A DNA stretch of 64,000 bases from Bdellovibrio sp. (lineage in GTDB: Bacteria; Bdellovibrionota; Bdellovibrionia; Bdellovibrionales; Bdellovibrionaceae). Location: contig JAKFCY010000002.1 of the NCBI GenBank assembly GCA_036676395.1, positions 2,592,001-2,656,000 of the forward strand, given 5' to 3'. The notes beneath the pieces are model-generated. The model did no database searches, was not told the origin of the DNA, and was given only the letters and a program-made list of their open reading frames with translations. The stretch's first letter is position 1, and the number at the start of each line of letters is the position of its first letter. This document shows positions 18,477 to 28,752 of this stretch, one piece after another. Both the position numbers and the translations under genes were made by a program.

Positions 18477-19427
18477 TTATGACTTCAGTTCGACTACTTG
18501 AGTTTCGAAGGCGAAATCCCAAGTAGTCGTTTCTTTAGCGGGATGTTTTTCAAAGGCTGCGCCAGCTCTTTCTTTGATCTTCTGAATGTCCTGAAGACTA
18601 GCAGAAGGATCATAGTGAGCCATGTATACTTGTTTAATAGCAAAATTCCCGCAAAGATTAAAAGCTCTTTCAAAAGTTCCATGGCCCCAACCTTTTTTCT
18701 GGTTCATTTCGTCTTCTTCGTACTGCGCATCGATATACATTAAATCTAAATTTTCGTAAAGCCCTGCGTCTTTGCCTAAGTCTTCACGAGTTACACGTGT
18801 GGCTTCGGTATCGACTGCGTGCCCATAGGCTTTACCACCATGTTCGATACGAAAACCGTAACAAGGATCTGGATGATCAAGCAAGTACGGAGTCACTGCA
18901 AAGCCATTAATGTAGCGCTTTTCATGCGGAGAAAGTTTAATAAACTGAATGTTCGCTTTAAGATCTTCATAACCCACCGGAAAAATCGGTTTCTGAAAAA
19001 GATCGCGCACAATTTTTTCACACTCAGGCTGTACGCAATAATACTTAACTGTACAACCCGGAATAAAATGTGGAGCAAAGAAAGGTAACCCAAGAATATG
19101 ATCAAAATGAAAGTGAGTAATTAAAATATGATATTCTTTTTGCGCAAAACGATTTTTCGCCAACGTATCGCTAAGGTATTTGATGCCACTGCCACCATCG
19201 ATAATAATAGTTTGATCGTCGCCTTGAACTTCAACACAAGTTGTAGCAACACCGTAACCGCTGATATCAACAAGTCTTTTTTCAGAAAGAAATTTATCAA
19301 CTTCAACGGGTGTTTTATAACCTTTATCCAAAAACTCGCGCATCAAAAGAGCGAATTGCTCTTTTGCTTCAATTGGGCTCGAACTGCTCGGAAGCGATCC
19401 ACGAACTCCCCAAAATTTTACTTTCAT
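18477..19427 (-). CDS. MBL-fold metallo-hydrolase (phosphodiesterase/RNase Z-like)
   Basis: KFWGVRGS, IDGGSG, THFHFDHILGLPFF, DAQY, GWGH, HYDP motifs. Confidence 0.9.
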   Translation of the reverse strand: MKVKFWGVRGSLPSSSSPIEAKEQFALLMREFLDKGYKTPVEVDKFLSEKRLVDISGYGVATTCVEVQGDDQTIIIDGGSGIKYLSDTLAKNRFAQKEYHILITHFHFDHILGLPFFAPHFIPGCTVKYYCVQPECEKIVRDLFQKPIFPVGYEDLKANIQFIKLSPHEKRYINGFAVTPYLLDHPDPCYGFRIEHGGKAYGHAVDTEATRVTREDLGKDAGLYENLDLMYIDAQYEEDEMNQKKGWGHGTFERAFNLCGNFAIKQVYMAHYDPSASLQDIQKIKERAGAAFEKHPAKETTTWDFAFETQVVELKS

Positions 19428-19633
19428 GTGTTGAATACCACGATGTGTTTTCCTTATTTAACACTATTAGTCTATTTTCTGATCATAACTTCCGCAAACA
19501 TTTCTGGGTAAACCTAGACAAGATTTCGTATGTTTACGAAGACCAAAGTCGGTAACCTCGACCAAGGTATTTCGCAAGCTACTAAATATCTAAGTATTTA
19601 GCCATAATCAGATTTGTCGAAGGTGGTTATCGC

Positions 19634-21448
19634 ATGAAGTGGTTGAATCGTTGGTTCTCGTTTTCTTGGAAGAAGTTGGTGTTGGTTGTCTCGCTTGTAC
19701 CTTTGATGTGGTTTTTTCATGGTCTCGATTTCCCTAAAGTTGATATGTTTTCGAGAGATGTACTCCAATTTTTAAACGATAACTCGAATGTCGAAAAATC
19801 CATCGTCACGATCAATATGAATTTAAAAAACGAACAATTTAAACGTCCATTTGAATTCGAGTCTTTTAAAACTTTAGTTGATACTCTCCTGAAGCAAAAT
19901 CCAAAAAATTTAATACTATGCTTTTCTCCGAGAGAATTCACTGGTGATGATACTCACGAGGACATTCGCCAAAAAGTTCTCAATTATCTACTCCCGCTTA
20001 AAAATGTCTATCTATATTCCCAAAGTTCAAATGATAAACATGATCCCAACACAGACCGTATATTCGAAAAATTTCCAAGAATATTTTTATTAACAATGCC
20101 ATTTGATAATTCGGGCGGAAGAAAACGTCGACGGGCTATTGTTTGGTTTGAAACAGTGGGCATTGCTACTGAATTCGCAGAAATGCAGAAGTTAGGATTT
20201 CAAACTAAAAATCATACCGATTTTCCATATGGCTGGCATTATTGGAAAACGATTCAACCCTATATAAAAACTTTTAAACAAGATTCTTTTGGCTCGCATG
20301 ACGCTTATGAAGTTATAGATACAAATTTTAAAGATGTTAATGTCGAAGGAAAAACCGTAATTCTTGGCTCGATTGACGAATTTGCAATGCTTGGAACTGA
20401 ATCAATTTTTAATTTATACTCTAAAATTGGAACTCCTGGATATAAAGATTTTCCGCCTGCTGACTCGCTAGCCAACTATATGAATTTTTATATTCATGGT
20501 GATTACATAAAGCTAATTTCTAACTTTAACGATTTGATACTATTTGGTTTTGTATTAATAATCCTGATTTTCATCAATATTGAAACTAGAAAGAAATTAT
20601 ATATCCTGTTATCACTCATTCCGTTGATCGCAGTATGTACTCTAATCCTTTACATCGTGGATAGTTATTACATTAATTTCTCCCGTAGTATTACTGCGCT
20701 ATTTTTCATTCAGTATCTTGGCATTCCAATTATTATGTTTGCTATGTTTAAAGAACAAGAAACAAAGAAATTGCAAGAAATCAGCGATGCAAGGATAGAT
20801 GCCTTACTCACAGTTTCAGAAAAGGTTGCACATGATATTCGCTCACCACTTTCCGCAATAAATCTGGTAATGCACAAAGTGAATTTCGACGATCCAGAAT
20901 ATAAAGAAATCTTTGACAGCGCTGTTCAGCGAATAGACGAAACCGCGACCAAAATTCTTACTCGTTACAGAACAAAAACAGGCAGTGAGAATGAACCCGT
21001 CGAACAAATTGATCTTGCTGAAATTATATCTTCAATAACTAAAGAGAAAAAAATTCTAAATACAAAAGTTGAATTCGAATTAGTTATTAATTCAGAAACC
21101 ACAACAGCTTTAGGATTAAAATTAGATCTAGAACGCATTATCAGTAACATTTTAGATAATTCAATCTTCGCACTTCAAAGCATCTTAGAACCCAGAATTT
21201 TTATTTCAACAGATTCACATGACAACATGATTCGGGTAGGCATCACAGATAATGGCACAGGAATTCCCGATCAAATTTTGAAACTTTTAGGTACAACCCG
21301 CATTACAACGAAAGCAGACACCAACCAAGGTAACGGCATTGGAATTTTACATGCTAAGCGAGTTATCGAACGACTGAACGGTCGATTTGAAATCTCTTCG
21401 GCTGAACATGTCGGAACAACGATCAAAATCAGTTTACCAAAAGCCTAG
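19634..21448 (+). CDS. Sensor histidine kinase with a divergent CHASE2-like periplasmic domain and three TM helices
   Basis: H-box AHDIRSPL, N-box NILDNS, G1 DNGTG, G2 GNGIG. N-terminal TM, then a periplasmic domain ending in EGKTVILG (CHASE2-like), then three TMs. Confidence 0.85.
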   Translation: MKWLNRWFSFSWKKLVLVVSLVPLMWFFHGLDFPKVDMFSRDVLQFLNDNSNVEKSIVTINMNLKNEQFKRPFEFESFKTLVDTLLKQNPKNLILCFSPREFTGDDTHEDIRQKVLNYLLPLKNVYLYSQSSNDKHDPNTDRIFEKFPRIFLLTMPFDNSGGRKRRRAIVWFETVGIATEFAEMQKLGFQTKNHTDFPYGWHYWKTIQPYIKTFKQDSFGSHDAYEVIDTNFKDVNVEGKTVILGSIDEFAMLGTESIFNLYSKIGTPGYKDFPPADSLANYMNFYIHGDYIKLISNFNDLILFGFVLIILIFINIETRKKLYILLSLIPLIAVCTLILYIVDSYYINFSRSITALFFIQYLGIPIIMFAMFKEQETKKLQEISDARIDALLTVSEKVAHDIRSPLSAINLVMHKVNFDDPEYKEIFDSAVQRIDETATKILTRYRTKTGSENEPVEQIDLAEIISSITKEKKILNTKVEFELVINSETTTALGLKLDLERIISNILDNSIFALQSILEPRIFISTDSHDNMIRVGITDNGTGIPDQILKLLGTTRITTKADTNQGNGIGILHAKRVIERLNGRFEISSAEHVGTTIKISLPKA

Positions 21449-21478
21449 TACTAAAGTCCTAACGGTTTACATAAACTC

Positions 21479-21500
21479 AAGTAACTTCCGCAAGTTACTT
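21479..21500. promoter_or_regulatory. Perfect inverted repeat next to the rSAM promoter
   Basis: AAGTAACTT-CCGC-AAGTTACTT. Could be an operator or a weak terminator of the kinase gene. Confidence 0.5.
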
Positions 21501-21504
21501 TCAA

Positions 21505-21521
21505 TTGGCTCTAGTATTGCT
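21505..21521 (+). promoter_or_regulatory. Candidate sigma-54 promoter of the radical SAM/peptide operon
   Basis: TTGGCTCTAGTATTGCT has GG-N10-GC with TTGC, ending 33 nt before the ATG. Confidence 0.65.
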
Positions 21522-21554
21522 ATTCTAATTTAGATTGAATAACTGAGAGACAAA

Positions 21555-22889
21555 ATGAAACCAATAGAACTGCGCCGACATAATGAAATTATCGCATTTA
21601 GAGCTGAGGACGACTCCCTTGTAGCTCTGCATGGTTTTAATATGGAAGTCGCAGAAATTAGTGAGGAATCATTTGCTCAAATGACACCGATTTCAATCTC
21701 TACAGGTGAAATTCCTGATGTCAAACTTCCAGACAACCATGAAGAAAAGGAAGCATTCGACGCATTGAGAGAATGGAACGCAGAAGAAAATCCAAATGCT
21801 AAAAGTGGAAAATTAGAGTTCGGAATTCGCTCAATTAATTTAAATGTAAACCAAATTTGTAATTTAAAATGTGCCTATTGCGCTGCCGGCGGCGATGGAA
21901 CTTACGGCGAACCCATGAATAAAATCTCGATCGAAAAAACCCTACCGCAACTCAAATTTTTCTTAATGCAGCTAAAGCCCGGTCAGAAATTTCGCGTGAT
22001 TATTATCGGTGGTGAGCCCCTTTTATATCCAGAAGCTATAAAGGCTGTGCACGACTATTTAATGTCAGAAGCGCCAAGCCGCGGAATTATCCCAAGACTT
22101 AGCATTGTGACAAACGGAACACTTCTTAACGGTAAAACTCTCGAGTTAATCCGCTCATTAAAAATCGAAATCAAAATTAGTCTCGATGGCGCTAAAGAAA
22201 TAAATGATGTTGTTAGACCAAGTAAAAACAATTCTAGCTCAACAGACCAAACAGTAGCTGGGATCGCTGAGTTAGCAAAAGATCGCGGTAACGTAACTAC
22301 ATGGGGAATCTCAGCGATCAGCACTTCAAAAAATCCAGAAACACTTTTAGCGTATCGTTATTTAAGAAGCTTAAATCCTGATTGGTTAGAATTTCATTTC
22401 GATGTTGGTGAGAAGTCGCAAGAACTTCAAGACAAACATATTGAACAAATGAACCTGATTGCTGCTGAAGCCTGGAAAATTGGTGGCGAAAAAGAACTCA
22501 GAAAAATAGCTCAGTTTGATCAAATTTTTCATCTTTTAGATAGCCAGCTTCGCCTTGAAAACCACTGTGGTGCTGGAAAAACTTACTTAATGGTCGACGC
22601 CAAAAACAAGATGTATCCTTGTGTTTGGGAGGCTGGCGACAAGGAGCAAGTTGTTGGTCAAAATGAACAACTCGACCATGCCAAGCTATCTAACTATTCA
22701 AAATCTCTTATAGAACTTAATAATTGCCAAACCTGCTGGGCTAGACACTTTTGCGGTGGCGGTTGTATGTATATCAATAAGCTCAATAATGGCAGTAAGC
22801 ATGTAAAAGATAAAATGTTCTGTGAACGTACGAGAAGCTTGCTTTTGCCTATTATTTCGTATTATAAATTAGCTAGGTCTGCGGAATAA
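21555..22889 (+). CDS. Radical SAM/SPASM peptide maturase (thioether-forming CteB/QhpD-like) with a probable N-terminal RRE
   Basis: CNLKCAYC, GGEPLL, TNGTLL, ISLDG. SPASM motifs HCGAGKTYLMVD....YPC and CQTCWARHFCGGGC...C. About 90-aa N-terminal extension with a beta-beta-beta-alpha pattern. Confidence 0.9.
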   Translation: MKPIELRRHNEIIAFRAEDDSLVALHGFNMEVAEISEESFAQMTPISISTGEIPDVKLPDNHEEKEAFDALREWNAEENPNAKSGKLEFGIRSINLNVNQICNLKCAYCAAGGDGTYGEPMNKISIEKTLPQLKFFLMQLKPGQKFRVIIIGGEPLLYPEAIKAVHDYLMSEAPSRGIIPRLSIVTNGTLLNGKTLELIRSLKIEIKISLDGAKEINDVVRPSKNNSSSTDQTVAGIAELAKDRGNVTTWGISAISTSKNPETLLAYRYLRSLNPDWLEFHFDVGEKSQELQDKHIEQMNLIAAEAWKIGGEKELRKIAQFDQIFHLLDSQLRLENHCGAGKTYLMVDAKNKMYPCVWEAGDKEQVVGQNEQLDHAKLSNYSKSLIELNNCQTCWARHFCGGGCMYINKLNNGSKHVKDKMFCERTRSLLLPIISYYKLARSAE

Positions 22890-22906
22890 AGCCGCAGGGG
22901 GAATAT

Positions 22907-22990
22907 ATGAAAAAACATATCAAAAAAGTTAAAGCTCAAGAAGTTAGCGAAAAGCCGATTAAAGAACCGGGCTGCTCACCTATGAAATAG
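22907..22990 (+). CDS. Putative RiPP precursor peptide, 27 aa: MKKHIKKVKAQEVSEKPIKEPGCSPMK
   Basis: Below the track length cutoff. Strong RBS AGGGGGA ending at 22902, starts 17 nt after the rSAM stop and fills the gap to the next kinase gene. KHIK leader motif and one Cys. Confidence 0.75.
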   Translation: MKKHIKKVKAQEVSEKPIKEPGCSPMK

Positions 22991-23004
22991 CTTGTGATTT
23001 TCTC

Positions 23005-24867
23005 TTGGAAGCATCACAAAAACTTGAACTTAAGTATTTAATTCTACGTACAATTTTCGCAATCGCCGTCGGCGTCCTTATCTCAGCATTTAATTTAGAT
23101 TTTATCGAAGGCTACCTGGTTGATTTTCGTATCCAAGCAAAAGCTTTTCTTGGGTTAGCAAAACCAAAAAACCCACAAGTTGCGATCGTATTAATTAACT
23201 TCAAAACAGTTGAAAAATATCAACGCCAACCTAACTTTCCTGATCACATCAAGTTTCTCAATCAACTCTCTGGATTAAACCCGAAATTTATCGTTTATGA
23301 GTTCAGAACAAGCGATGAAGAATTTTTAGAAATCAGTGGAACCTACAAAGAAAAACAAGAATTTGCAGATCAAATTAAAAGTTTTTCGAATCTTCATTTC
23401 TCAACTCAAAATTTAACTATTAAAGGTGAAACAGAAGAGTTTCGCCTTAAAGCTCCTTTAGACGAAATTAAATTCTCATCTATGCCTTTTACTGCTGATG
23501 GAAAATCATTCGGTAAAGATGGAGTTTCACGTCGCCTAATGTATCAATATCAGGATCAAGCAATGGTCCAACCTCGGATCGCTGCCTTCTATAATCCAGA
23601 GATTCAGAATCCAGAAAAGATCAGAGGAAACTTTTATTATTTAGAGTCATATCAAACTTATATTGATTATCACCCCGTTGGCTCATTTCCGACATATGCC
23701 TTTGAAGATGTCGTCGATGGCAAAGTTCCTAAAGATGCTTTCGAAGGTAAAGTAGTTATTGTGGGTTCAGATCTAGGTAAAGACCCCGATGACTATGCTT
23801 CTACTCCATATAATCGCCATTTCAGTGGTATGACTAAGACCGAACTTCAAGCCAATCAGATTCAAACTCTCATAGATAACAGTGCCCCACTTAAACCACA
23901 TCGTGCTGTTAATATTGCTATCGTTATTTTAATTTCATTCTTAACTCTCTACGCTACTTTATCTCTTACCCCAGCACGCGGTCTTTTAATCTTAGGCGGT
24001 ACTTTATTTGGGCTAGGCGTAATTTCTATTTTAGCATTTAGCGTTTTCGGTATCTGGTTCGATCTTTCGCATCCATTTCTAGCAATCTTCCTCTGCTACT
24101 ACTTCTTCATCCCCTACCGTCTTATCCGAGAAAACCGCAAGAGCTGGGAATACTACCAAAAGCATAAACTACTCTCTGAAGTCGAAGAGCTTAAAACAAA
24201 CTTCATCTCAATGATGTCGCACGATCTAAAGACTCCTATCGCGCGTATTACCGGCATGACTGAAGTAATCTACAAAGACCCACAGCAACTATCGTCTCAC
24301 CAAAGAGAAGCGCTGGACACGATCAGACATAGCTCTGACGATCTATTAAAATTCATCAACGCTATCCTTCAGTACGGAAGCATCGAAAGCCAAGGCGTTC
24401 AGTTACACAAACAAGCTAAAGATCTTAATCAGCTTCTAGCCGACGTCGTGAAGAAACACCAATTTCTAGCTAATGTTAAAAAGATCAAGATCATCCAAGA
24501 GCTTGAGCCGATGTTTCCTACCCAAGTAGACCCAGAGCTTATTAAACAAGTGTTTTCGAACTTACTCGAAAATGCGATTAAGTACTCTCCTGAAGAATCT
24601 ACCGTCTGGGTGCGTAGCCGCGAAGGCGACGATACTATAATAGTAGAGTTTCAAGATCAGGGTATGGGGATTCCGCCATCTGATCTTCCGAATATTTTCA
24701 TGAAATTCTTTCGTACCCACACGGTTAAGACCACAACCATTAAAGGTTCTGGCTTAGGGCTTTATTTAGCCCAGTACTTCGTAGAATTGCATAAGGGTAA
24801 AATCACGGTCGATAGCTCGCCTGAACGAGGCTCTAAGTTCACCGTTGAGCTTCCATTAGACAAATAA
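23005..24867 (+). CDS. CHASE2-domain sensor histidine kinase
   Basis: DGVSRR, FEGKVVIVG, TPY, ELQANQIQTL (CHASE2), three TMs, H-box SHDLKTP, NLLENAIKYS, DQGMGI, GSGLGL. Confidence 0.92.
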   Translation: MEASQKLELKYLILRTIFAIAVGVLISAFNLDFIEGYLVDFRIQAKAFLGLAKPKNPQVAIVLINFKTVEKYQRQPNFPDHIKFLNQLSGLNPKFIVYEFRTSDEEFLEISGTYKEKQEFADQIKSFSNLHFSTQNLTIKGETEEFRLKAPLDEIKFSSMPFTADGKSFGKDGVSRRLMYQYQDQAMVQPRIAAFYNPEIQNPEKIRGNFYYLESYQTYIDYHPVGSFPTYAFEDVVDGKVPKDAFEGKVVIVGSDLGKDPDDYASTPYNRHFSGMTKTELQANQIQTLIDNSAPLKPHRAVNIAIVILISFLTLYATLSLTPARGLLILGGTLFGLGVISILAFSVFGIWFDLSHPFLAIFLCYYFFIPYRLIRENRKSWEYYQKHKLLSEVEELKTNFISMMSHDLKTPIARITGMTEVIYKDPQQLSSHQREALDTIRHSSDDLLKFINAILQYGSIESQGVQLHKQAKDLNQLLADVVKKHQFLANVKKIKIIQELEPMFPTQVDPELIKQVFSNLLENAIKYSPEESTVWVRSREGDDTIIVEFQDQGMGIPPSDLPNIFMKFFRTHTVKTTTIKGSGLGLYLAQYFVELHKGKITVDSSPERGSKFTVELPLDK

Positions 24868-25006
24868 ACACACTATAAACACAGCCCTAGAGCTTCTGCT
24901 CGCTAAGTAAACAATTCCTAGCTGGTGTCATTTTGCTTTTTTCGGTGTTCATTCGCTTAAAACTTGTGCTATACCCTACGACATATCGCTTACGGGGGAA
25001 TTATAT

Positions 25007-26578
25007 ATGTTAAAGGTTTTAGTTGTTGATGACGACCAAGCTCTACGCTTTTCGATCCGCTCTGCCTTAGAAGCTACTCGCAGATTCTCTATTGAAGAGG
25101 CTTTCGATGGCGTCAACGCTTTAGAAAAAGTTAAAGCCACTGATAGCACTAAACGTATCTATGACATCGTCATTCTTGATGTGGATATGCCGCGCATGAA
25201 CGGCTTAGCCGCACTTAAAGCGATTAAAGAATTCGATCCAGGCATTATCGTCTTAATGTTAACTGCACACGCGACGGTAGAAGCCGCTGTAGCAGCCGTT
25301 AAAGACGGAGCTTACAACTTTTTATCTAAACCAATCTCGGGTGATGATCTTACAGCCTTAATCGACAGAGCCATCAACGCTCACCGAATGATTTCGAACT
25401 TAGCCGTATCTTCACCGGTGTTTGTTGATGAAGGCCGTAAAATCATCGGTAACACTTCGCAAATGCAAAAAGTTTTTAACGTGATTCATAAGCTTGCTAA
25501 AGTTGATACCCCGGTATTAGTGCGCGGAGCTTCAGGAACAGGTAAAGAGCTTGTTGCTAAAGCCATCCACTTTAACAGCGCCCGTAAAGATGAAAAATTC
25601 GTGGCGATCAACTGTTCGGCGATTCCTGAGAATTTATTTGAATCTGAATTATTTGGTCACGAAAAAGGATCGTTTACTGGTGCTGACCAACGTAAAATCG
25701 GAAAGTTTCAATTTGCTGAAGGCGGAACTTTATTCTTAGATGAAGTTGGCGACATGCCACAGTTGATGCAAGTTAAAATCTTACGTGTATTACAAGAAAA
25801 ATTATTTACTCCGGTTGGATCAAATCGCGAGATTCCTACAAACGTAAGAATTATCGCAGCGACAAACCGTCCGTTAGAAAAAATGATGGAAGAAGGCCGC
25901 TTTCGTGAAGACTTATTCTATCGTTTAAATGTTGTACCTATTATTTTACCTCAGTTAAATGACCGCAAAGATGATTTAGATGTTTTAATTAATATCTTCA
26001 TCAAAAAATTTAACGTAGCTCACGGTAAAAAAATTAATGGCTTAACCAAAGATGCACTTGATGCAATGAAACGTTATAACTGGCCAGGAAATATCCGTGA
26101 ATTAGAGAACGTGATCGAACATTCTTTCGTTCTTGAATCAGGAAATCAGATCACTTTAGGAAGCTTACCAGAAGCGGTTTTGATGGCTGCTGGAATCAGT
26201 TTAATCGACCAAATGGATAAGATTCAGAGTCAATCAGAAACTATGAAGCAAATGAACGGCGCAACTGCTGTAAACATGGGCGTGACAGATTCTGACGACG
26301 ACGATGATTTATCTATTGACGCAGATTCTGAAATCGATGGCGATGATGAAATTGACGGCGAAGTGATCGGCCTAAGTGTTTCACCAAATGGCTTACTTGA
26401 TTTCAATGCACAAAAAGAAGAGTTCGAAAAACAGTTTATTATCAAGGCCTTGAAAACATTTAAAGGCAAAATTAATCAAACAGCATTGCACGCAAACATT
26501 CCGAAAAAGACTTTATTACGTAAAATTGAAAAGTACGGAATCGTGGCGAAAGAATATGCAAAAGTTGATCTTGATTAA
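25007..26578 (+). CDS. Sigma-54-dependent response regulator (REC-AAA+-Fis HTH, NtrC family)
   Basis: REC VVDDD and LDVDMP. GASGTGKE, GSFTGA, LFLDEVG, FREDLFYRL, WPGNIREL, C-terminal HTH. RBS GGGGGA. Confidence 0.95.
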   Translation: MLKVLVVDDDQALRFSIRSALEATRRFSIEEAFDGVNALEKVKATDSTKRIYDIVILDVDMPRMNGLAALKAIKEFDPGIIVLMLTAHATVEAAVAAVKDGAYNFLSKPISGDDLTALIDRAINAHRMISNLAVSSPVFVDEGRKIIGNTSQMQKVFNVIHKLAKVDTPVLVRGASGTGKELVAKAIHFNSARKDEKFVAINCSAIPENLFESELFGHEKGSFTGADQRKIGKFQFAEGGTLFLDEVGDMPQLMQVKILRVLQEKLFTPVGSNREIPTNVRIIAATNRPLEKMMEEGRFREDLFYRLNVVPIILPQLNDRKDDLDVLINIFIKKFNVAHGKKINGLTKDALDAMKRYNWPGNIRELENVIEHSFVLESGNQITLGSLPEAVLMAAGISLIDQMDKIQSQSETMKQMNGATAVNMGVTDSDDDDDLSIDADSEIDGDDEIDGEVIGLSVSPNGLLDFNAQKEEFEKQFIIKALKTFKGKINQTALHANIPKKTLLRKIEKYGIVAKEYAKVDLD

Positions 26579-26672
26579 TAATTGAACTGCATTTTCTTAC
26601 ATAAAATTTTGCATTCGGTAACGTGGTATTACGATTGACTCGAATATAGGGAAACTTTACCGTTGAGTCCCT

Positions 26673-27218
26673 ATGACAGTTAACCCGTTGCCTCCTCAAG
26701 CTTATACCAAAGATACTTTACAGAAAGCGTATTCGTGGCTGTTGTCACAATCGTCTTCTGTTAAAGAAATGGCGCAAGATCAAAATATGTTGGTCAGCCT
26801 TTATCTAAAAGCACAACGTAATGGGGATGCTGTTCTTGAAACTCCAAGCATTCAAAATTTCAAACAAGAATTAAAATCGTTAGCTAACATGATGGGTGAT
26901 TTTCAATCGCCGCAACAGTTAGCTACAGCGGCTTCGCACATGCACGCCCCAGCACATAAACATGCGCCAACAATCCATTCGCATGCTTCGCAAACCAATG
27001 CGACAGCTACCGCAGCAGCGGTTTCTACGTCGCATGTCACGACGACGACGGTTAGTCAGTCGCGTGTATCAACTGATATGAATGCAAATGGTTTTGATCA
27101 AAAAACTTTAGAGGCTATTCAGCAAGTGCGTGAAACTTTTAACTTAAGTTCTGATGCTGAAGCGATCCGCGCCTTAGTGGCGTTAGGAATTAAACAATTC
27201 CGTAAATCTGGTTTATAA
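26673..27218 (+). CDS. Hypothetical protein with a low-complexity linker
   Basis: 181-aa ORF with typical codon use and two short helical domains separated by an Ala/Thr/His-rich linker. Confidence 0.75.
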   Translation: MTVNPLPPQAYTKDTLQKAYSWLLSQSSSVKEMAQDQNMLVSLYLKAQRNGDAVLETPSIQNFKQELKSLANMMGDFQSPQQLATAASHMHAPAHKHAPTIHSHASQTNATATAAAVSTSHVTTTTVSQSRVSTDMNANGFDQKTLEAIQQVRETFNLSSDAEAIRALVALGIKQFRKSGL

Positions 27219-27235
27219 TTTTTCAATTTCAGCGT

Positions 27236-27278
27236 TACAGCAAGTGCGCAAAAAATTTTTAATCGCGCACTTGCTGTA
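27236..27278. terminator. Stem-loop between convergent genes
   Basis: TACAGCAAGTGCGC-N15-GCGCACTTGCTGTA, a perfect 14-bp stem. Confidence 0.55.
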
Positions 27279-27302
27279 TAAATTTTTTTAAGTTCTGTTA
27301 AT

Positions 27303-27743
27303 TTAATTTGGCTCAGGTACGAATTTATCAATCGCGCAAAGATAACGTCTTTCTGGCGGATTATCTTTATTCGGCCACCAATAAATGCATTTGATATCTG
27401 CAGTACGGGTAAAACATTTCGGCCCTTCACAGACAGCTCCATTAACGTCTTTTAAAAAGTAGTACAGTTTTTTCGCGACCATACCGGTCTTTTGTACATT
27501 CACGTTATGAAATTCATCGTGCAGCAGACAAGTGTAATTAACTCCACCGTTTACGGCTCTTTGGCAAAGCACAGGTTTTGCCCATTCGCGTGTTTGCATT
27601 TCTGCCGGAAAAGCTGTGCGTAAGCCATATGCGGCTAAGACATTGTATAATTTTTTTGATTGCCCTTCATTTAAAGCAACGGGAACAGCTTGCGCTGCTT
27701 GCGCAAAGGCGAAAAGTAACAAACTTACTAGTAGTGATTTCAT
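27303..27743 (-). CDS. Secreted six-Cys protein (paralogue 3)
   Basis: Signal peptide ending AQA, LNEGQSKKLY motif, six Cys. Confidence 0.8.
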   Translation of the reverse strand: MKSLLVSLLLFAFAQAAQAVPVALNEGQSKKLYNVLAAYGLRTAFPAEMQTREWAKPVLCQRAVNGGVNYTCLLHDEFHNVNVQKTGMVAKKLYYFLKDVNGAVCEGPKCFTRTADIKCIYWWPNKDNPPERRYLCAIDKFVPEPN

Positions 27744-28252
27744 TTTCGATCTCCATTTTTTGGTTTTGGTTTCGGTTGTGATAAAAGGTATTCAACAGAA
27801 CAAGAATATTTATTAGCAACTAACGAACAGGCCATTTTTTCTGCGGCGTTCATACAAGTTTCGCTGTCATCTTCGCAATCCATAGATACATGCTTAACCA
27901 TCAGCTTGAAAAGCGGATCAGCGATCTTATTATATTTCGTTAGTTCACGCGAGCGAAGGTCATCATACAATGAACACCCGAGCTTGCGGCCATCTTCCAT
28001 ATTTTCGACACAAATCACATCTGAAGCCTGAATATTCTTAGTTTGCGTCTGACGGTCTATAACAACAAGTTTCCATTTGTTAAGCACATCAAACAGCTCT
28101 TTAGAATCGACTTCGTTGAGTTCAGTTTTTACCAATTCAGGCTCTGGCGGAATCACTGGATCAGTGGGTAATTCTTGGGCCCAAGCAGAGTTAAAATAAA
28201 ATTGACCGGTGATAAGTAGCGTAAGAAAACTGCGAAGAATATTCTTTTTCAT
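27740..28252 (-). CDS. Secreted six-Cys protein (paralogue 2)
   Basis: Signal peptide ending AWA, ELNEVDSKELF motif, six Cys. Confidence 0.8.
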   Translation of the reverse strand: MKKNILRSFLTLLITGQFYFNSAWAQELPTDPVIPPEPELVKTELNEVDSKELFDVLNKWKLVVIDRQTQTKNIQASDVICVENMEDGRKLGCSLYDDLRSRELTKYNKIADPLFKLMVKHVSMDCEDDSETCMNAAEKMACSLVANKYSCSVEYLLSQPKPKPKNGDRK

Positions 28253-28272
28253 GTTGAATCCTAATATAAAAA

Positions 28273-28752
28273 TTAATTCGTTGGAATTGGTGTGCGAATC
28301 GGCTCAAGCCAACAGATGTGACGTCTTCCGATTGGAATAAGAACTGGCGGATTTTTAGGATCCCATGGATGCCAACAACGGATTAAACGAGCTGCCGTTA
28401 AGCATTCTCTGTTTTCTAAATTGTTTGGTCCACAGATTGTTCCCACATGGCGGTCTAATAGTTTTGCTAACCAGCCGGCCGCCTTATCCGAGCGAGTAAG
28501 TTCTTTATCATGATTAGTGTCTAATAAAGTACAACCTGGATATTTGTATTGATCTTTGTTGTCCCAGTAACAACGGGGATCGATTACATCAATGCGGATA
28601 AGACGTCTTTCTTGATCAGCATAGCGGGTTCCCCATTTTGACAGGGCCATATACATATCTTTTGAATCAGCCTCGTTCAGTTCCATGGGGACCACGGCGG
28701 CAAATGCAGATGACGACATCATTAGCACTAGTGCGACTAACAGTTTTTTCAT
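28273..28752 (-). CDS. Secreted six-Cys protein (paralogue 1)
   Basis: RBS AGGAG, signal peptide ending AFA, ELNEADSKDMY motif, six Cys. Confidence 0.8.
   Translation of the reverse strand: MKKLLVALVLMMSSSAFAAVVPMELNEADSKDMYMALSKWGTRYADQERRLIRIDVIDPRCYWDNKDQYKYPGCTLLDTNHDKELTRSDKAAGWLAKLLDRHVGTICGPNNLENRECLTAARLIRCWHPWDPKNPPVLIPIGRRHICWLEPIRTPIPTN

Follow-up and report, generated by a model that had tools for sequence, protein, structure and literature searches.

We found that a short open reading frame (ORF) in the window, the 64,000-nucleotide stretch of Bdellovibrio DNA analysed here, is a real conserved gene under selection at the level of the protein and always paired with the radical-SAM (rSAM) enzyme encoded next to it. 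Its 27-residue product is very probably a genuine precursor peptide that is modified by the adjoining enzyme. Judged by its sequences, the family appears to be a new minimal one-Cys variant of the radical-SAM thioether peptides, for which we infer the chemistry, and what sets it apart is a fixed link with a CHASE2 kinase and a sigma-54 activator. The genes and the features of the peptide are as follows.

21555-22889 (+): putative radical-SAM/SPASM peptide maturase, 444 aa; Pfam Radical_SAM 3.4e-15
22896-22902 (+): Shine-Dalgarno sequence AGGGGGA of the peptide gene, by direct reading of the sequence
22907-22990 (+): putative precursor peptide gene, 27 aa, ATG to TAG, from the sequence and from comparison of orthologs
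22916-22936 (+): leader motif H4-I-K-K-V-K-A10 of the peptide
22973-22975 (+): core Cys23 of the peptide, after a variable linker
22979-22981 (+): Pro25 of the peptide
23005-24867 (+): sensor histidine kinase, 620 aa, TTG start; Pfam CHASE2 22-310, HisKA 397-462 and HATPase_c 509-619
25007-26578 (+): NtrC-type response regulator with receiver, sigma-54 AAA+ activator and Fis-type HTH domains, from Pfam, NCBIfam and synteny

A conserved peptide gene behind the radical-SAM gene

Translation of the ORF at 22907-22990 (+) gives the residues quoted in the earlier note, with a single Cys, and four residues follow Cys23. The ORF starts 17 nt past the rSAM stop (22889) and ends 14 nt ahead of the TTG start of the CHASE2 kinase gene (23005), and these two spacers confirm its description as filling the gap between the rSAM and kinase genes. 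Upstream, 5 nt separate a GGGGG run at 22897-22901 from the ATG of the peptide gene. The near identity that had been claimed between this ribosome-binding site and that of the response-regulator gene also holds, with GGGGGAATTATAT preceding the regulator gene at 25007. No terminator-like sites were found on the + strand between the rSAM, peptide and kinase genes, and an Rfam scan of 19000-27500 returned no RNA family.

The ORF was followed through two sets of loci, which come from relatives and are not independent of each other. The rSAM gene was detected at E <= 0.001 in 46 of the 61 related genomes searched, among them 33 of the 36 that belong to the same genus. The first set comprised 30 loci with rSAM identities of 50-100%, and all 30 carried an ORF of 27-46 aa starting between -4 and +47 nt from the rSAM stop. 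In the peptide alignment of these loci M1, H4, K7, K9, C23 and P25 were invariant. The second set took one genome per species and the best 80 of 109 relatives, which gave 79 loci with rSAM identities of 37-94%; among these best 80 of 109, nearly all are labelled Pseudobdellovibrio, Bdellovibrio or Bdellovibrionales. Four of the 79 were left out, two without the 3' end of the rSAM gene and two ending at the end of that gene. An equivalent ORF was present in all 75 usable loci, in 63 by a strict leader motif and in the other 12 by eye. Across both sets, an ORF of 27-49 aa directly follows the rSAM gene in 105 of 105 loci with readable downstream DNA. A relaxed pattern applied to the pooled sets recovered 103 of the 105, the two misses (L099 and L104) being among the 12 loci found by eye.

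Since the two sets overlap in genomes, the fair counting unit is the 70 distinct peptides. One Cys is found in 69 of these and two in the remaining one, while Pro stands at Cys+2 (C-x-P) in all 70. The peptides have an N-terminal motif of the H-I-K-K-V-K-P type and the C-x-P near the C-terminus; the core and the linker are highly variable, and only C-x-P is fixed there. The earlier note had expected a scan behind homologous rSAM genes to reveal a conserved KHI-type motif and a Cys with a variable core, and this is what the 105 loci contain.

At the nucleotide level 75 distinct versions were compared. Over the seven codons of the leader motif the entropy is 0.44 bits at first, 0.19 at second and 1.15 at third codon positions. 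In the same versions Cys is encoded by TGC in 48 cases and by TGT in 27, and all four Pro codons are in use. Third positions thus vary while the residues are kept, hence selection acts on the protein and not on an RNA or a spacer. A profile of the full peptide set searched against the six-frame translation of the genome found this site alone (E = 6.7e-4). When the window and its 94% twin were removed from the profile the ORF ranked first, but with E = 0.21, so the significance is carried by position and synteny and not by the short sequence alone.

An ORF with no function, either a chance ORF or a translated spacer through which synthesis of the enzyme and of the kinase is translationally coupled, would be in keeping with the very short length, with the E-value of the leave-out profile and with the failure to match any family model. 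We consider such an explanation extremely improbable. The ORF is present in every one of the 105 usable loci with its Cys and Pro invariant and its leader kept despite rSAM identities down to 37%, its variation falls mainly at third codon positions, and the peptide-enzyme complex described below is predicted to be specific.

In one distant clade (L096, L099, L101, L103 and L106) the peptide gene lies about 75-185 nt past the rSAM stop, and this longer spacer may hold a promoter of its own. The leader of the same clade reads S/N-I-K-K-I-K-P and not H-I-K-K, and its peptides have a C-L-P-I-R ending.

We found no model for the peptide in Pfam or NCBIfam. The SCIFF model TIGR03973 (cut-off 50) matched one of 30 peptides with 12.5 bits (E = 0.1) and left the other 29 unmatched, and a genome-wide search with it did not retrieve the peptide ORF; the SCIFF/QhpC-like leader proposed earlier is reduced to that one match. 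Membership in SCIFF was rejected on this score and on the number of Cys (one in 69 of 70 peptides vs six in about 45 residues), and a PapA-type or sulfatase-type membership of the peptide family was likewise rejected. Searched against PDB chains, the peptide profile gave a chance-level match only (E = 0.65) and no CteA chain. In a large protein collection, a profile whose alignment had a 46-aa member placed first found 63 small proteins, all of them unnamed or 'hypothetical' and devoid of Pfam domains. Annotations include the gene in some cases and never give it a name.

The enzyme and its predicted contact with the peptide

By sequence and predicted fold the enzyme is of the CteB type. It carries one further feature that bears on the peptide.

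About residues 1-85 of the rSAM enzyme: RRE-like N-terminal domain, from the predicted fold

The CX3CX2C motif of radical-SAM enzymes (C102/C106/C109) is invariant in 32 orthologs. Exactly seven further Cys are invariant in the same orthologs (C338, C356, C391, C394, C400, C404 and C423), with no conserved eighth, and this seven-Cys SPASM arrangement, which is that of CteB, aligns with CteB Cys for Cys. At the site of the extra Cys of the anaerobic sulfatase-maturating enzyme anSME (C-G-M-N-G-T-C) there is no further Cys in the enzyme family or in CteB; alignments to PDB sequences place one Cys in the family and in CteB where anaerobic sulfatase maturase has two or more. In the CteB structure the missing eighth ligand is reported to leave one iron of auxiliary cluster I free for a substrate Cys.

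Among family models, the Pfam SPASM model was not reported for the enzyme at E <= 0.001, and neither Pfam nor NCBIfam reported a PqqD/RRE model for its N-terminal domain. The best NCBIfam matches all lie below their cut-offs, namely PapB (NF047865, 158 bits vs 340), a nif11-type rSAM model (151) and two ScfB-related models (124 and 121, with ScfB itself, TIGR03974, at 120.6 vs 425). QhpD (TIGR03906, 105 bits, or 105.3 vs 453) and CcpM (104) follow, also below cut-off. The enzyme is hence not a member of the PapB, ScfB or QhpD families as these models define them, and its top matches are Cys-thioether maturases (PapB, ScfB, QhpD and CcpM). The anSME model TIGR03942 gave 79.2 bits, which is also below its cut-off for membership (349.45). 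A profile of the enzyme family searched against PDB sequences matched CteB, the thioether synthase of SCIFF, with 1.4e-43, TigE with 4.7e-19 and anaerobic sulfatase maturase with 2e-14.

The AlphaFold (AF2) model of the enzyme (pLDDT 89, pTM 0.89) has CteB as its best fold match, with a Foldseek TM of 0.75-0.80. VIA-align superposed 401 residues on CteB over model positions 10-441 (Z 33.7, rmsd 3.2 A), the alignment starting at model residue 10, which pairs with chain residue 2. In contrast, the alignments to anSME (Z 28.5) and ChlB (Z about 28) begin only at about residue 87-90. Hence the first 85 residues appear to be the counterpart of the leader-binding domain of CteB.

Because the window peptide is under 30 residues long, we modelled the pair from a 94%-identical ortholog (locus L002, 31-aa peptide), using alignments, three 4Fe-4S clusters and SAM. 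The complex scored 0.87 in all three runs, compared with 0.02 for the best of three controls, and the runs showed at least 45% contact agreement and a partner pLDDT of at least 56. In calibration, 116 of 157 solved complexes and 2 of 215 mismatched pairs scored this high, all modelled in a setting unlike the custom alignments and small-molecule ligands of the present job. A passing score can also arise from resemblance to a complex of known structure, and this may apply here, since CteB has been solved with the CteA leader (5WGG).

In the predicted complex the leader (peptide residues 2-14) lies on rSAM residues 24, 31-36, 38-39, 66-67, 70-71 and 74, of which A33 and W74 are invariant and E31 and V32 nearly invariant in the 32 orthologs. 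Peptide residues 25-30, with the Cys, are placed among barrel and SPASM residues including 337-339, that is, in the active site. The fold alignment and the predicted complex both point to binding of the leader by the RRE-like N-terminal domain. The earlier suggestion that the HIK segment is the part bound by the maturase fits these predicted contacts, in which peptide residues 2-14 face rSAM 24, 31-39 and 66-74.

Candidate chemistry at the single cysteine

On balance we favour a Cys thioether as the modification, and a single one, because of the ranking of families and structures together with the single invariant Cys. The system resembles SCIFF/thermocellin (CteA/CteB, the ranthipeptides of Clostridia) in its rSAM/SPASM enzyme with a predicted N-terminal leader-binding domain and a seven-Cys SPASM, and in its small precursor with a basic N-terminal leader and a Cys in the C-terminal core; both systems also behave as core genes of their clade. 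It is unlike SCIFF in that the peptides of 27-49 aa have one Cys and not six, the precursor follows the enzyme gene in an operon hard-wired to a CHASE2 kinase and a sigma-54 activator, and it occurs in Gram-negative predators.

No acceptor residue is conserved among the 70 distinct peptides. Exactly four residues follow the Cys in 36 of the 70, which places the C-terminal residue at Cys+4. Either the C-terminal residue or an Asp/Glu occupies +4/+5 in 50 of the 70; with Asn/Gln the count rises to 63, and seven peptides have neither. A study of PapB describes joining of Cys to the carbon adjoining the carboxylate of a downstream Asp/Glu and, in vitro, also to the C-terminal residue if this is a D- or beta-amino acid (PMC12373016). 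Taken with the end residue at Cys+4, this C-terminal linkage makes a ring from Cys to the C-terminal residue a lead, not a finding, and a link to a backbone alpha-carbon is an equally open alternative. The earlier note had put forward a ring from Cys to the Glu three residues upstream. At position -3, 54 of 70 peptides have Gly and only 4 have Glu, which makes this ring unlikely as the link of the family, and we rejected it on conservation.

PapA/PapB (freyrasin) offers a second point of comparison. PapB is the best NCBIfam match of the enzyme, and the repeated motif of PapA, C-x-x-x-Asp, has the same spacing as the Cys+4 C-terminal residue found here in 36 of 70 peptides. The differences are the score of the enzyme below the PapB cut-off of 340, one Cys as against six repeats, and the lack of a conserved Asp/Glu acceptor. 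To our knowledge, an invariant Pro at Cys+2 is not a feature of PapA.

The same Pro raises the question of whether the enzyme carries out thioether chemistry at all. Anaerobic sulfatase maturases oxidise Cys to formylglycine on a C/S-x-P/A-x-R motif (the C-x-P-x-R form being the one with Cys), and anSME, with its SPASM fold, is a clear structural relative (Z 28.5). Oxidation of the Cys to formylglycine would agree with the invariant C-x-P, which is often followed by x-R/K (Arg at +4 in 13 and Lys in 11 of 70 peptides, the window peptide having Lys), and with the C-I-P-V-R ending of many distant Bdellovibrio-labelled peptides. We nonetheless regard this oxidation, or another radical reaction in place of a thioether (epimerisation or a C-C link), as improbable. 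The enzyme scores 79 bits with the anSME model, whose cut-off is 349, and scores higher with the thioether maturases; its CteB-like N-terminal leader-binding domain is an addition that the anSME structures do not cover; and the extra anSME Cys, the eighth cluster Cys, is absent. Furthermore, Gly occupies +4 in 27 of the 70 peptides, and the substrate here is a free small peptide and not a sulfatase.

Operon, distribution and possible role of the peptide

Upstream of the rSAM gene we located a candidate promoter.

21506-21520 (+): sigma-54-type promoter motif TGGCTCTAGTATTGC (GG-N10-GC), one mismatch to TGGCAC-N5-TTGC

This motif lies 35 nt before the rSAM start codon. Near-matches to sigma-54 sites occur at chance level across the whole window (52 found vs 53.8 expected), and the case for the motif comes from the relatives. 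In 66 of 78 distinct upstream regions TGG-N9-TGC occurs no more than 160 nt ahead of the rSAM gene, compared with 3 regions when the opposite strand is read and with a mean of 1.06 and a maximum of 5 in 200 shuffles. The stricter pattern TGG[CTA][ACT]N6TTGC gave 66 vs 0. The motif is absent in 12 of the 78 regions.

A perfect 8-bp inverted repeat with a 4-nt spacer, AGTAACTT CCGC AAGTTACT (21480-21499, +), ends 6 nt before the -24 element of the sigma-54 motif and is only partly kept in a 72% relative. It may serve the kinase gene upstream as a terminator, or it may be a site bound by a protein.

In 73 of 79 loci from the best 80 of 109 relatives, the next gene downstream, on the same strand, encodes the CHASE2 kinase. 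In the six loci without it the contig stops within the rSAM gene or less than 1 kb beyond it. The regulator, whose Sigma54_activat domain is matched with 5.5e-72 (Pfam), follows the kinase wherever the flank is long enough, with the one exception of L093, in which it lies upstream on the other strand. The gap between kinase and regulator is 10 nt in 17 of 58 distinct spacers, and all 17 come from the more distant loci, most of which carry a Bdellovibrio label. We rejected a sigma-54 promoter specific to the regulator gene, as TGG-N9-TGC occurs in none of the 58 spacers. In the window a sigma-54-like motif whose spacer is short by one base, TGGTGTCATTTTGC (24923-24936, +), stands 83 nt upstream of the regulator start; it is identical in five close relatives and absent elsewhere.

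The two marks of a sigma-54-dependent operon, a GG-N10-GC motif upstream and an AAA+ activator encoded within, are both present. These findings are most simply read as a single sigma-54 operon that includes the gene for its own activator, in which the co-encoded regulator would activate the rSAM promoter.

In an even sample of 301 genomes of the phylum the enzyme was found at E <= 1e-40 in 44. Within the window's family 34 of 35 sampled genomes (G000 not counted) carry it at this threshold, as do 7 genomes from three other families of the order; outside the order the sample gave only two weaker matches. The module of rSAM enzyme, peptide, kinase and regulator is nearly confined to Bdellovibrionales, and in the window's genome it occupies a single place. 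Its flanks, with genes for a class A penicillin-binding protein, an MBL-fold protein, a 181-aa ORF and isoleucyl-tRNA synthetase, are syntenic too, and the module is therefore core and vertically inherited.

Several neighbours are of note in their own right. A second histidine kinase gene (19634-21448, +, 604 aa) lies directly upstream of the sigma-54 motif; Pfam reports HATPase_c only and recognises no named sensor domain in it. It is found at the same place and on the same strand in only nine of the loci compared, in which it is 37-57% identical, and hence falls outside the conserved module. The MBL-fold hydrolase gene (18477-19427, -), with weak RNase Z-like matches far below cut-off, is upstream of the module. 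In many loci it stands directly before the rSAM gene, and in the window and some relatives the extra kinase intervenes. The 181-aa ORF (26673-27218, +) comes after the regulator in most loci across the order with 36-86% identity and no Pfam or NCBIfam family, and may be a target of the system. Beyond it, three consecutive ORFs of 146, 170 and 159 aa (27303-28752, -) have no family match and are kept only in the closest relatives. Locus L089 (JBLMWG010000318.1), labelled 'Bacillota bacterium', carries a complete Bdellovibrio-type module with its flanks in Bdellovibrio order, and the label of this bin is probably wrong.

We propose a model where the short basic leader (H-I-K-K-V-K-P type) would be held by the RRE-like N-terminal domain of the rSAM/SPASM enzyme encoded upstream, with the C-terminal core (G-x-x-C-x-P-x-x) threaded into the active site of the enzyme. 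As in CteB, the open iron in auxiliary cluster I would most likely be the site at which the single Cys binds, and one thioether would connect this Cys to a carbon close by. That carbon may belong to the residue 4-5 positions after the Cys, with which the peptide ends in about half of the family, or it may be a backbone alpha-carbon. One sigma-54 promoter would serve all four genes, those for the peptide, the enzyme, the kinase and the activator, so that the activator probably drives its own operon. The modified peptide would most likely provide all or part of the signal that the CHASE2 kinase reads, and this would close a self-amplifying loop.

We hold the parts of this model with different degrees of confidence. 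The combination of a precursor, a thioether and one sigma-54 operon, with the ligand claim set aside, has our moderate confidence. That the peptide is exported, sensed by CHASE2 and hence the ligand of the co-encoded kinase is a tentative proposal, conceivable but short of probable. The fuller version, in which a one-thioether peptide is the natural CHASE2 ligand and the four genes form a self-activating, species-specific pheromone circuit common to Bdellovibrionaceae, we regard as rather unlikely.

The arrangement of the operon looks like an undescribed peptide-signalling loop. In the agr/com pheromone operons of Gram-positive bacteria, precursor, modifying enzyme, sensor kinase and response regulator are encoded in one self-activated operon. 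The same gene set is found here in one operon that is probably self-activated, and here too the peptide and the sensor domain diverge quickly; unlike agr/com, this system has a putative radical-SAM modification, a CHASE2 sensor, a sigma-54 activator, no exporter or protease in the operon and a Gram-negative host. Locus L033, whose rSAM enzyme is 67% identical to that of the window, shares with it 55% identity in the CHASE2 domain, 90% in the kinase core and 96-97% in the regulator, and the same gradient, with CHASE2 diverging fastest, is seen across 20 loci. A fast peptide, enzyme and sensor beside a slow regulator would be the pattern expected of a diversifying signal-receptor pair, and it is only suggestive because sensor domains evolve fast in general.

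Other observations fit a role of the peptide as an output. CHASE2 would then sense another cue, for instance one derived from prey or envelope, the sigma-54 activator would switch the operon on, and the modified peptide would act as an effector, an intracellular regulator or a cofactor-like molecule. We found no exporter or leader protease gene in the operon or among its neighbours, and the peptide has no signal sequence while the CHASE2 domain is periplasmic, which speaks against a signal. A single-copy core feature, present in 34 of 35 family genomes and at one site in the genome, would suit the housekeeping type of rSAM peptide, and the streptococcal rSAM peptides under a separate quorum-sensing system are a reported precedent for wiring from regulator to peptide (PMC9389541). 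Against this, a core and linker so variable that only C-x-P is fixed would be unusual for a cofactor, the sensor domain diverges together with the peptide and the enzyme, and in 73 of the 79 loci from the best 80 of 109 relatives the peptide gene is closely packed between those for the enzyme and the kinase. We therefore see an output role as possible, if on the unlikely side.

A literature search, covering sources other than subscription journals, found no description of the module and no reported peptide ligand of a CHASE2-type domain. One supplement to an rSAM-RiPP compendium (PMC10288494) contained no mention of 'Bdellovibrio'.

Known radical-SAM thioether peptides are mostly multi-Cys products of Gram-positive bacteria. 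The system described here is small and tractable, with one enzyme, one 27-aa substrate and one invariant Cys and Pro, and Bdellovibrio bacteriovorus is a cultured, genetically tractable relative with the same module. It could serve for defining the chemistry, what CHASE2 senses and whether Bdellovibrio-type predators signal to each other. If the ligand circuit is true, these predators would have a form of population or kin sensing made by radical-SAM chemistry.
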